From the NCBI GenBank assembly GCA_048884965.1, contig JBHLQH010000011.1:1-64000 (forward strand): a DNA stretch of 64,000 bases, written 5' to 3'. The stretch comes from Candidatus Thorarchaeota archaeon (GTDB lineage: Archaea > Asgardarchaeota > Thorarchaeia > Thorarchaeales > Thorarchaeaceae). Both the position numbers and the translations under genes were made by a program. Each line of letters opens with the position of its first letter. The first letter of the stretch is position 1. This document shows, piece after piece, positions 1-1,952 of this stretch. The notes below the pieces were generated by a model. That model did no database searches. It saw only the letters and a program-made list of their open reading frames with translations, and had not been told where the DNA came from.

Positions 1-10
1 TTGTGGCTTC

Positions 11-25
11 GGTATATATACTAAA
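11..25 (+). promoter_or_regulatory. Putative archaeal TATA box upstream of the small-ORF/MFS operon
   Basis: GGTATATATACTAAA lies about 30-40 nt upstream of the ATG at 53. Confidence 0.45.
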
Positions 26-52
26 TCTGCTACCATATACTTGTGAAATATC

Positions 53-157
53 ATGGCTCTAGCAACTAACTACAGAACCCGACTCGTGAAGCAGAACAAG
101 CATGAGATCATCAAGACTCAGGCTATAACCTACGCATACAGAACTGTTGTGAGGTAA
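53..157 (+). CDS. Small peptide sORF1 (34 aa, MALATNYRTRLVKQNKHEIIKTQAITYAYRTVVR)
   Basis: Hand-translated. ATG follows the TATA box, the 3' end carries the SD-like GAGGT for the next ORF, and it resembles sORF2. Confidence 0.55.
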   Translation: MALATNYRTRLVKQNKHEIIKTQAITYAYRTVVR

Positions 158-162
158 TCAGC

Positions 163-243
163 ATGGCATTAGCGAAAGTATCCAAGTCCCCCAAGACCCA
201 GATCTCTACTAAGGCTATCACTCAGGCTTACTTCCGGAGGTAG
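163..243 (+). CDS. Small peptide sORF2 (26 aa, MALAKVSKSPKTQISTKAITQAYFRR)
   Basis: SD-like GAGGT at 151-155; shares MALA...T.AIT.AY with sORF1. Confidence 0.55.
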   Translation: MALAKVSKSPKTQISTKAITQAYFRR

Positions 244-248
244 AATCT

Positions 249-371
249 ATGGCGATGGTCATTGAATCGTGGAATAACGAACAAGCTGTTGAGTTGGTCA
301 CTAAGTGGTCACGACGGTGGTCACTTTCTCCCACCAGTGGCATATGCAGTGACCAGTCTATAACCACCTGA
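249..371 (+). CDS. Small peptide sORF3 (40 aa, MAMVIESWNNEQAVELVTKWSRRWSLSPTSGICSDQSITT)
   Basis: SD GGAGGT at 236-241; 5-nt gap after the sORF2 stop. Confidence 0.45.
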   Translation: MAMVIESWNNEQAVELVTKWSRRWSLSPTSGICSDQSITT

Positions 372-375
372 GGTA

Positions 376-498
376 ATGACCATGACAAAAGTTTCGCATG
401 CAAAAATGTCGCAACTCGAAGTTCTTCTATCATCTTCTTCCTATCCTGATGAGATACGATCTCTATTCTATGACTATCATTGGAGGCTTGAAGGATGA
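376..498 (+). CDS. Small peptide sORF4 (38-40 aa, MTMTKVSHAKMSQLEVLLSSSSYPDEIRSLFYDYHWRLEG)
   Basis: SD GAGGT at 370-374 (start 376 or 382); the stop overlaps the MFS start as ATGA. Confidence 0.5.
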   Translation: MTMTKVSHAKMSQLEVLLSSSSYPDEIRSLFYDYHWRLEG

Positions 499-1952
499 GC
501 AAGGTTGCAACATTCTTTGGGCTTACTGATGCAAACGAGAAGATTCTAAGACTATCATCAATACTCTCAATTCTTCTGCCAATTGTAGCTCTGACTACCA
601 CACTAAGTACGACTTTCTTTATGATATTCGTGGCCGAGTGGCTCGGAGGTGGGTCCTATATAGATGGACTTGCCCTCGTTGGGATTTTAGTCGTCATTCA
701 GATGGGTGTTCAGACACTATTAGACTATCCAACAGCTGCTTTGGGTGATGCAATCGGACAGAGATGGATCATTACGTCATCATTCCTCACCTTTGCAGTC
801 TGCTTCTACATGGTTGCACTGGTTGGTCCAGGCACTCCTATTCTTTATGTTGTTATCATCTATCTCCTAATGGGCTTTGGCAACTCTCAGTTAAGCGGCG
901 CCTTCATGGCATGGTTCGATAATAATTACAGAGTTGCCATGCCCTCCGATAGTGATAGAAAGCAGTATGGCGTCTTCATGGGAAAGGTCGGTATGCTCTA
1001 TCAAGTAGTGGCTACATTGGCTTTAATCCCAGGGAGTGTTCTAGCTGTTATCTTTGGAAGAGCTTGGGTATTCCAAATACAAGCATTCATGTGTTTGGGC
1101 ATTGCTTTGGTATGTTTCAAGATAATTGATGATTTTCCAGAGGTCAAGGAATCTCGCGTGAAACGTCCGTCCATGAAAGAATACACAGACGTGTTGGCGT
1201 CAGGTGTGAGATTTCTGTTCAGTGAGAAATATGTGACCTATATCATACTTGGAGGCTGTGTTGTTATGAGTGCTGGAATGGTCTGGGGAAATCTCATTCT
1301 ATTTCCAATGTATTTCAGCTATCTTCTTACTGATGTTGCAGTGTCCAGTTTCCGTACTATGCTCTTCGGTATAGGAGTTGTGAACCAAGAACGTAGCGGC
1401 ATCTGGTCGAGGAGATTTGAACCCAAGAAATGGATCCCCCGTTTCAGACTCCTTCAAGGTGTAGGAGCGATATTCTATCTTTCATTTGCAGCCATCATGT
1501 TCTTCCTTCCTCCTGCTCAAGCGGGAGCCGAACTAATCATGCTTACAATCCCGTACACTCAGATCGTCATCATGCAGCTTCCGACTTCGAGTATTCTACC
1601 CCTGCTGCTGATGACGATCACATTCACAATTACAGGCTTTGCTGGCGGATTTGCTGAGGTCTTGACTCAGCGTGAGTTGCTAGATGTTATCCCGAACAAG
1701 ATCCGCAATAGCATGTACTCTCTATCTCCAACTATTGCGACTCTGTTGGCAATGCCCCAAATCGCTCTCTTCGGGTGGCTCATTCCTAATGCAGGCTTCC
1801 CCATAACCATGACTCTCTGTGCAGCTATCTCCATCATCGGTGTGATAATGATTGCAAAGGGATTGAGTCATCCGAAACCTATTGCTAGCGATATTTCACC
1901 TCAAGGTCACCATGATGAAATGACAATTGAAGTGGTGGCAGTAGAAGAGTAG
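495..1952 (+). CDS. Major facilitator superfamily transporter
   Basis: About 12 hydrophobic segments; DYPTAALGDAIGQRW (MFS motif A-like); SQLSGAFMAW; DVIPNKIRNS loop. Confidence 0.85.
   Translation: MSKVATFFGLTDANEKILRLSSILSILLPIVALTTTLSTTFFMIFVAEWLGGGSYIDGLALVGILVVIQMGVQTLLDYPTAALGDAIGQRWIITSSFLTFAVCFYMVALVGPGTPILYVVIIYLLMGFGNSQLSGAFMAWFDNNYRVAMPSDSDRKQYGVFMGKVGMLYQVVATLALIPGSVLAVIFGRAWVFQIQAFMCLGIALVCFKIIDDFPEVKESRVKRPSMKEYTDVLASGVRFLFSEKYVTYIILGGCVVMSAGMVWGNLILFPMYFSYLLTDVAVSSFRTMLFGIGVVNQERSGIWSRRFEPKKWIPRFRLLQGVGAIFYLSFAAIMFFLPPAQAGAELIMLTIPYTQIVIMQLPTSSILPLLLMTITFTITGFAGGFAEVLTQRELLDVIPNKIRNSMYSLSPTIATLLAMPQIALFGWLIPNAGFPITMTLCAAISIIGVIMIAKGLSHPKPIASDISPQGHHDEMTIEVVAVEE

Follow-up and report, generated by a model that had tools for sequence, protein, structure and literature searches.

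How is a leader to be understood in which four very short open reading frames (ORFs) tile nucleotides (nt) 53-498 of an archaeal contig and run directly into a transporter gene? The window, a 64,000-nt stretch of DNA from a Candidatus Thorarchaeota archaeon, covers positions 1-64000 of contig C11 of its genome (designated G000), with position 1 being the contig end. On the plus strand, the ATG-initiated ORFs 53-157 (sORF1, 34 aa), 163-243 (sORF2, 26 aa), 249-371 (sORF3, 40 aa) and 376-498 (sORF4, 40 aa) are directly followed by a gene of the major facilitator superfamily (MFS) of transporters. Comparison with relatives gives a two-fold answer. sORF1 and sORF2, called A and B in the following, are real paralogous genes of a lineage-specific multi-copy family. 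The region 1-498, on the other hand, is probably a composite control region built of two stacked units, which share the half-site GGTCAC / TGTGACC and presumably one transcription factor. The features of the region, with the evidence considered for each, are the following:

1-52, plus strand: core of the promoter P1 (alignment of 24 copies from several genera; copies in the own genome)
53-157, plus strand: sORF-A (profile, ratio of non-synonymous to synonymous changes or pN/pS, AlphaFold2)
163-243, plus strand: sORF-B (hhalign comparison of A and B, pN/pS)
249-371, plus strand: sORF3, a bridging ORF (good Shine-Dalgarno sequence and ATG; peptide not conserved; spans P2)
295-365, plus strand: P2, a predicted second promoter/operator (nhmmer copies, invariant columns)
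376-498, likely start 382, plus strand: sORF4, the leader ORF of the MFS gene (upstream ORFs of orthologues)
495-1952, plus strand: MFS transporter, 485 aa (Pfam MFS_1)

The architecture described in the original prediction, four same-strand ORFs with Shine-Dalgarno (SD) sites and an ATGA overlap with the MFS start, is all there. The SD of sORF2 (GAGGT, 151-155) lies in the last codons of sORF1 with ATG 163 following 7 nt on, the SD of sORF3 (GGAGGT, 236-241) in the last codons of sORF2 with ATG 249 equally 7 nt on, and the SD of the MFS gene (GGAGG, 482-486) inside sORF4 with ATG 495 8 nt on, where the ATGA at 495-498 unites the stop codon of sORF4 with the MFS start. As the spacing of GAGGT at 370-374 is only 1 nt to ATG 376 and 7 nt to the in-frame ATG 382, the latter is the likelier start of sORF4. 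No SD is found ahead of the first ATG at position 53. An unbroken chain of ATG ORFs over 53-498 arises by chance in 122 of 20000 dinucleotide-preserving shuffles and, with sORF1 and sORF2 taken as given, a chain over 244-498 in 872 of 20000.

A run of at least five T is absent from window 1-500, and a T7 run at 1980-1986, 3' of the MFS gene, can be taken as the oligo-T terminator of this gene. With no terminator between P1 and the MFS gene, transcripts from P1 should therefore read through. A reading of the leader and of P2 as structured RNA has been rejected, as the leader 40-510 folds no better than shuffles (z = +0.76), the P2 region 285-395 reaches a z of -1.2 and covariation is missing; equally, Rfam (E up to 1) and tRNA scans of window 1-3000/5000 gave nothing relevant, with a chance snoRNA inside the MFS gene as the sole Rfam match. 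An antisense ORF of 127 aa (218-601) has been dismissed as well, as the matching sequences of relatives are interrupted by stop codons and the ORF merely shadows the MFS start and P2.

A family of paired microproteins and its promoter

That sORF1 and sORF2 are basic and paralogous had been proposed from their sequences, and both statements hold: the charge is +6 for each, the two align full-length with 22 A-type and 16 B-type sequences, and the A and B family profiles match each other in hhalign with a probability of 97.7% and an E-value of 2e-12. Across 22 loci from several genera, the A consensus reads MALATNxRT..KKNK..ST.A..YAY.TVVR with 32-36 aa and the B consensus, in the same 22 loci, MALAK...ISTKAITQAYFRR with 26-32 aa, whereby the lengths of both vary between loci by whole codons. 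The family pattern consists of an N-terminal M-A-L-A-(T/K), a basic middle part and a C-terminal ST.A(I/L)..AY..R(R) within 26-36 aa. A third gene, C, is often present, ending with (E/D)VLALEAT and followed by a T-run; there is no C gene in the window, where sORF3 fills the C slot without any C motif. The selection check that had been suggested for the two frames equally came out in favour of coding, with pN/pS over the conserved blocks of 0.62 in frame compared to approximately 1.0 off frame for A and of 0.27 in frame compared to 1.27 and 2.3 off frame for B.

The taxonomic range of the family is narrow. A profile of the 22 A sequences scores 69 bits on window 53-154 and has 1-9 matches per genome in 39 of the 43 genomes from the same GTDB family, whereas no match was obtained in 157 genomes from 26 other families of the phylum. 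The matches are nearly all intact frames of 31-44 aa, mostly 33-39 aa, with one TAA among the matches listed. Among 1.84 billion representative proteins, the profile retrieves only 40 clusters, nearly all of 29-46 aa, and Pfam and NCBIfam hold no match for the peptides. AlphaFold2 models A as one continuous helix with a mean pLDDT of 77. The mean hydrophobicity of A and B is -0.15 to -0.17, and no signal peptide, Cys or membrane segment is present in either. Membrane-active or amphipathic peptides have been rejected by the analysis of the hydrophobic moment, which at 0.14-0.17 is not above that of shuffled sequences (p 0.5-0.7).

The cassette is repeated in the own genome together with its promoter. 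Window 1-250 recurs at C81:1335-1578 with 84% identity, and further copies are located at C40:1-174 (minus strand), C1:227900-228054, C29:45814-45928 (minus strand) and in the last 46 nt of C40, with more distant ones on contigs C9, C32 and C53. Over window 1-52, the other own-genome copies are 100% identical in the first 46 nt, apart from one mismatch in the C1 copy. Within the window, P1 comprises GTGGCTTCG (3-11), the TATA box GTATATATAC (11-20) and a conserved CTTGTGAAAtATC (40-52) that runs into the first ATG. The upstream operator TAGTCACA-N4-TGTGACC-N7-TGTGACCC is lost at the contig start and present on the end of contig C5. The layout of all copies in the alignment of P1 is TAGT(C/A)ACA-N4-TGTGAC(C)-N7-(C)TGTGACCC-N5-GTGGCT(T/C)CG-(G/C)(T/A)AT(T/A)ATATACT-N22-CTTGTGAAA.ATC-ATG. 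From usual archaeal spacing we infer a transcript start near position 42, which would leave a leader of approximately 11 nt without SD. A short leader without SD is typical of archaeal first cistrons, and the internal cistrons of the P1 unit use GAGGT.

The last 77 nt of C5 (C5:174080-174156) are 100% identical to window 1-77 and, because this match includes A codons found only in this copy, the C5 end most likely abuts the window start. Four contig ends fall inside the P1-A/B repeat (among C5:174046-174156, C40:1-208, C40:24089-24168, C29:45808-45947 and window 1-77), so this repeated promoter breaks the assembly. Two joins are suggested by sequence identity, of the C5 end with the C11 start, which would bring two MFS paralogues into tandem, and of the C40 start with the C29 end, which would yield an A-B cassette followed by an ECF-S-like membrane protein.

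A third type of promoter has been observed besides P1 and P2, an inverted repeat GGTTTG-N5-CAAACC directly before TTTATAT. It precedes a 36-39-aa upstream ORF (uORF; ending with ..ESFRR and an SD) of the tandem C5 MFS paralogue (locus L079, G000:C5:172000-174156, 355-540) and equally a divergent A-B-C cassette on C9 (G000:C9:85740-86130), and boxes resembling this type occur at loci L030, L034, L036 and L047.

The element P2 and the leader frame of the transporter gene

P2 came to light when the sequences upstream of 24 orthologous and paralogous MFS genes were compared. In the window, the element consists of three direct half-sites TGGTCAC at 295, 306 and 318 (11-12 nt apart), the spacer TTTCTCCCACCAGTGGC, ATAT at 342-345 and, on the 3' side, GCA, the inverted half-site GTGACCA at 349-355 and GTCTATAA, with CTATAA at 358-363. 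The half-sites have the same sequence as the P1 operator (TGTGACC / GGTCAC), and clusters of at least three GGTCAC sites occur only four times in the 4.09-Mb own genome. An nhmmer profile identifies 33 distinct copies in genomes of the same family, which precede leader ORFs of MFS genes, A/B-type sORFs (L041, L014, L069), GNAT acetyltransferase genes, the divergent cassette on C32 and other genes; copies in the own genome are located before two GNAT genes and a 142-aa gene (C4:5539, C4:57557, C5:120255). ATAT is invariant in 27 of 27 sequences, with a median distance from this box to the start codon of 37 nt, and the distance from the 3' arm to the next start codon has a median of 23 nt and is 15-40 nt in 26 of 32 copies. 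These features make P2 read as a second promoter/operator of the same regulon as P1. Its transcript would start near position 370, and sORF4 would therefore be the short-leader first cistron of the P2 transcript.

As a side observation, proteins of about 140 aa without Pfam match (..DEAEELREIAKALPELFNAINDSIPK..) are encoded directly behind P2-type elements in several genomes, with L076 (G000:C5:119400-120400, 431-856 on the minus strand), L064, L065 and L071 as members of this family.

sORF3 spans P2, and its peptide is not conserved. Among 32 copies of P2, 26 can be read through in frame 2, to which sORF3 belongs, and 22 in frame 3, and each of the two frames is interrupted by stops in some copies; the closest relatives (L013, L028, L031-33) read frame 3 while the window reads frame 2, and the substitutions between the window and L028 over P2 are amino-acid changing in both frames. 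For these reasons, that is different open frames in different genomes, non-synonymous changes in both and stops in some copies, a peptide reading of P2 has been rejected. Neither sORF3 nor sORF4 has a paralogue in the own genome. That sORF3 is a decayed C gene is equally unsupported, as no C motif is present after the cassette homology ends at around position 248, at the sORF3 ATG. The single hidden array of four peptides of the original prediction has in this way retained two conserved paralogous genes, A and B, while it divides into two predicted promoter units and includes one frame with a peptide that is not conserved.

The MFS protein of 485 aa matches Pfam MFS_1 only and receives no NCBIfam name. 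Its family is expanded in Thorarchaeia, with seven matches at E <=1e-30 in the own genome, including the window copy and one distant member (29% identity). When the upstream regions of MFS orthologues were compared, as had been proposed, a uORF that ends on the MFS start (ATGA, GTGA or CTGA) or 2 nt before it was found in 11 of the 15 closest orthologues. Such a uORF is absent from more distant MFS paralogues, among them four of five further copies checked in the own genome. The C-termini of the sORF4 type read ..LFYDYHWRLEG in the window, ..FVYRYHWRLDE in L028, ..AYQFKWRLLK in L038 and ..AYQSKWRLMK in L039. A partly conserved end of the type Y-x-Y/F-x-W-R-L is seen in L027, L028, L038 and L039, with related ends in L035 (..MYNYCTRLNS), L013 (..LYCYLRSVIE) and L029 (..LYYEYRWGV). 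The W-R codons of sORF4 encode the SD (TGGAGG). The Tyr codons 5' of the SD switch between TAT and TAC and the residue between the Tyr varies, a pattern which points to selection on the sORF4 peptide. In this MFS subfamily, sORF4 is a conserved leader ORF.

Cassette neighbourhoods

The genomic context of the family was sampled with 60 further hits of the A profile, 55 of which have an A-type chain. The chains consist of one sORF in 9 loci, two in 20, three in 19, four in 5 and five in 2, with a C-type third ORF in most of the three-sORF chains, so that the C gene is not an obligatory part of the family. Pfam was consulted for 38 genes that come next on the same strand within 900 nt, and the GNAT gene on C81 was added (39 in total). 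Thirteen of them are MFS genes, nine of which also match MFS_3, eight are GNATs (seven Acetyltransf_3) and the rest are singletons. The view of A and B as plain multiple uORFs of the MFS gene does not fit these counts, with only 13 of 55 cassettes preceding an MFS gene and 19 of 55 having a third small ORF. A recurrent modification enzyme (radical-SAM, YcaO, lanthionine or similar), a feature of precursors of ribosomally synthesized and post-translationally modified peptides, was not found among the 39 next genes, and such precursors have been rejected, as only MFS and GNAT recur in the neighbourhoods. In the own genome, GGTCAC-type operators are also present ahead of a bactofilin-domain gene, an S9 peptidase, an ECF-S-like membrane protein and GNATs. 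The MFS_3 gene on C1 of the own genome (L004), the sole one scanned against NCBIfam, gave weak sub-threshold matches to Mef and EntS.

Several neighbouring genes deserve mention in their own right. The bactofilin-domain gene (L072, G000:C2:48900-50500, 136-1485) encodes a 424-aa protein (PF04519, E 1.3e-12) behind a P1-like operator TAGTAACAATATGTGACCC, and just upstream of it lies a highly conserved, single-copy gene for a 103-aa winged helix-turn-helix protein (HTH_45; C2:48494-48802). In the MFS_3-type gene that follows sORF-B in L004 (G000:C1:226400-229554, 1750-1933) and in L026, no ATG, GTG or TTG is present where the conserved N-terminal helix (..RPDYLRLWLGQVVSNVGTAISS..) begins, and the open frame reaches back to a few bases from the B stop, which suggests that translation begins at a non-canonical start or by reinitiation; for this gene, other genera have an ATG or GTG start 6-7 nt after B. 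In genus g6, a four-ORF tiled leader before an MFS_3 gene (L095, L096, L097 and L120; 251-716 of the oriented locus) is composed of A, a 39-aa ORF across a P2 copy (..WSQSGHSYGQSVSEIPYPVTNL), a degenerate A-like ORF and B, with a GTG start 6 nt on, and parallels the layout of the window in another genus and before a different MFS family. A 189-191-aa Acetyltransf_3 GNAT with the N-terminus MYYGE.V.LR.LE recurs beside A-B-C cassettes (L107, L110, L113, L121, L143, L144; L002 1727-2302, minus strand). In genus g6, it follows the cassette on the same strand after approximately 740 nt, and in the own genome the two are convergent. One idea would be that this GNAT acetylates the N-termini of A, B and many C, with Ala exposed after removal of Met. 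Finally, the terminator of the MFS gene in the window is followed by a gene (2039-2788) whose 249-aa product has a segment rich in Gly and Ala and, at the C-terminus, two double-CxxC motifs that resemble zinc ribbons.

Composite control and its rivals

In the composite control region that is considered probable here, P1 of the first unit, with the TATA box at 11-20 and the operator on the abutting C5 end, would transcribe A and then B, whereby the first cistron would be translated from a short leader without SD and the later cistrons would be served by the SD in the last codons of the preceding gene. In the second unit, P2, with its ATAT box, three direct half-sites and one inverted half-site, would start a short-leader mRNA with sORF4 as first cistron, and the MFS gene might be translated by termination-reinitiation at the ATGA overlap, aided by the GGAGG inside sORF4. 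On read-through transcripts from P1, the unconserved sORF3 would carry ribosomes from B over P2 to sORF4. A and B would be cationic single-helix microproteins made in quantity once the regulon, which may comprise MFS exporters, GNAT acetyltransferases, the bactofilin-domain protein and the S9 peptidase, is switched on, and would act in trans on a probably anionic partner. A reading of A and B as free, abundant, cationic helical microproteins is favoured because operons stand alone with their own terminators, the copy number is high and selection extends over the whole length.

With respect to known systems, the putative promoters resemble archaeal promoters with BRE/TATA elements and operators in having a TATA-type box approximately 37-40 nt before the first start codon. 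Their half-sites are spaced by one helical turn and located 5' of the box and, in P2, also just 3' of it. The GGTCAC/TGTGACC motif fits no regulator that can be named, and the P2 box is weak. Among bacterial small proteins, modulators such as the AcrZ-type transporter partners and small basic proteins have in common with A and B a length below 50 aa, co-expression with pumps, which for A and B is predicted, and the omission from annotation. The known pump partners cross the membrane once as a hydrophobic helix, whereas A and B are hydrophilic, have a charge of +6 and contain no membrane segment. In mycobacteria, leaderless short ORFs have been described as first cistrons of polycistronic mRNAs (PMC4633059; bioRxiv 10.1101/834739). 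These are equally unannotated, located at or near the mRNA 5' end without SD and ahead of operon genes, with SD for the later cistrons, whereas the mycobacterial attenuator ORFs are defined by their codon content (poly-Cys) and are not multi-copy paralogues with a common operator.

Several points weigh against parts of this composite arrangement. The arguments for a trans role of A and B, that is stand-alone operons, copy number and whole-length selection, are indirect, and the 13 of 55 cassettes directly before MFS genes fit a cis role equally well. P2, whose ATAT is a weak TATA box, might act only as an operator that lies within a longer 5' leader, without promoter function, and the join of C5 to C11 rests on an identity of 77 nt only. 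As regulon factor, the HTH_45 protein encoded upstream of the bactofilin gene has been rejected, as it displays no specific link, is single-copy in 41 of 43 family genomes and occurs also in other families and in genomes without the A family.

The main rival, considered tentative, is a predominantly cis-acting role of A, B and sORF4 as nascent peptides that sense a ligand, similar to SpeFL, TnaC or the Erm/Mef leaders. The entire chain of 26-38 aa would reside in the exit tunnel and its conserved aromatic and Arg-rich end would stall the ribosome at or near the stop codon in the presence of a metabolite or a ribosome-targeting drug, and the stall would change the number of ribosomes that reinitiate on the exporter or GNAT gene. 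Consistent with such a role, the N-terminus and the aromatic C-terminus are both conserved, the length fits the exit tunnel, the stop abuts the next start and the last codons contain an SD, an MFS gene comes directly after 13 of 55 cassettes (MFS_3 in nine) and seven cassettes are near Acetyltransf_3 GNATs; sORF4 is a short ORF immediately before the MFS gene, as in 11 of 15 orthologues, which applies to A and B only in part. However, many cassettes stand alone as A-B-C operons, terminate in a T-run and have no gene behind them to regulate. Near-identical copies are located ahead of unrelated genes, the z values of the leader and of P2 reveal neither a hairpin switch nor excess structure 3' of the ORFs, and the terminal Arg codons may be kept just because they encode the SD (AGGAGG). 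We know of no arrest peptide described in archaea.

SpeFL, a 34-aa leader of the speF-potE decarboxylase-antiporter operon in gamma-proteobacteria with an N-terminal sensor and an aromatic C-terminal effector, blocks release at its own stop codon (bioRxiv 10.1101/604074). The ORFs of the window share with the SpeFL, TnaC, Erm and Mef-Msr leaders that they are very short, hydrophilic and basic and located directly before a transporter-containing operon, and with SpeFL in particular a conserved N-terminal part, an aromatic C-terminal part ending just before the stop and the exit-tunnel length. Unlike SpeFL, to which there is no sequence similarity, they have no Rho or hairpin output device, and A and B are multi-copy, are often found in a stand-alone A-B-C operon with its own terminator and belong to an archaeal host. 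A more far-reaching version, in which the entire regulon uses A, B and sORF4 as nascent-chain sensors of small molecules or drugs, with dozens of near-identical leader ORFs stalling at stop codons to gate exporters and acetyltransferases, is judged unlikely. If true, it would be the first archaeal arrest-peptide system, on ribosomes close to the eukaryotic ancestor.

That all four ORFs, including sORF3, are a selected ribosome relay that keeps the 450-nt leader translated, with the peptides being irrelevant, is improbable as well. sORF3 starts where the cassette homology ends, in the C slot, and stops on the SD of sORF4, and can therefore pass ribosomes on; few shuffles are fully tiled (0.6-1% for the window and the MFS_3 leaders L095-97 of genus g6), and each of the P1-to-P2 tandems examined has an ORF that spans P2, in whichever frame is open. 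Against a selected relay, complete tiling from the first ATG to the start of the cargo gene is found in only 9 of 21 related leaders, the tiling of L013, the nearest relative with the same layout, breaks after B, the P2 core is free of stops in two frames in most copies anyway, and A and B are under amino-acid-level selection, hence the peptides matter. In L028, an orthologue from the same genus, P2 directly follows P1 without A or B. Because of the incomplete tiling, the break in L013 and the lack of A and B in L028, the four-ORF relay appears to be a lineage-specific arrangement of modular parts. Of the translational relay that had been proposed, the coupling geometry at every cistron and the junction of sORF4 with the MFS start are maintained, and its extension over the whole leader is not common to the relatives, with which the upstream-region comparison supports the sORF4-type uORF and not the full array.

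That the short ORFs encode exported or signalling peptides had equally been suggested. In a specific form of this proposal, A and B would resemble phenol-soluble modulins or leaderless bacteriocins and be secreted by the adjacent MFS or EamA pumps. Tandem paralogous small cationic peptides without leader, often located beside exporters, and an S9 peptidase with the same operator type would agree with this proposal, which nevertheless is very unlikely, as A and B are hydrophilic (mean hydrophobicity around -0.15) and not amphipathic compared to shuffles, lack a signal peptide and Cys, have no modifying enzymes that recur in their neighbourhoods and mostly are without an adjacent pump. Hardly any credence can be given to P2 as a structured RNA (riboswitch-like hairpin) or a conserved peptide (..GH..GHF.P..AY.VTS) instead of a DNA operator/promoter: an SD comes shortly after the inverted repeat, which is perfect over 7 nt and encloses a conserved 24-nt loop, and a frame-3 ORF of approximately 40 aa recurs in genus g6 and others, but the repeat displays no compensatory pair in 27 sequences, with 19 of 189 cells unpaired, folding (z = -1.2) and Rfam provide no support, the half-sites repeat every 11-12 nt and are identical to those of the P1 operator, and the element is also found before genes without an ORF across P2, while some copies contain stops in both frames.

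Operons of micro-ORFs and leader ORFs ahead of pumps are of a known kind, and the novel parts are the family, its operator and the stacking of P1 and P2. In the literature on small ORFs, microproteins and uORFs of Asgard archaea and Thorarchaeota, no description of this family was found. Small ORFs are routinely omitted from archaeal annotation and, to our knowledge, nothing is known on microproteins or uORFs in the Asgard archaea, which among prokaryotes are most closely related to eukaryotes. In this context, the locus presents a lineage-specific family of approximately 30 aa under amino-acid-level selection with several copies per genome, and a common operator motif that would mark a regulon of exporters, acetyltransferases and a bactofilin-domain gene. 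Equally, predicted short-leader first cistrons are combined with SD-coupled ones and with a leader ORF that is conserved among orthologues and fused by ATGA to an MFS gene. The locus provides concrete targets for the analysis of initiation, coupling and possibly nascent-chain sensing on Asgard ribosomes.

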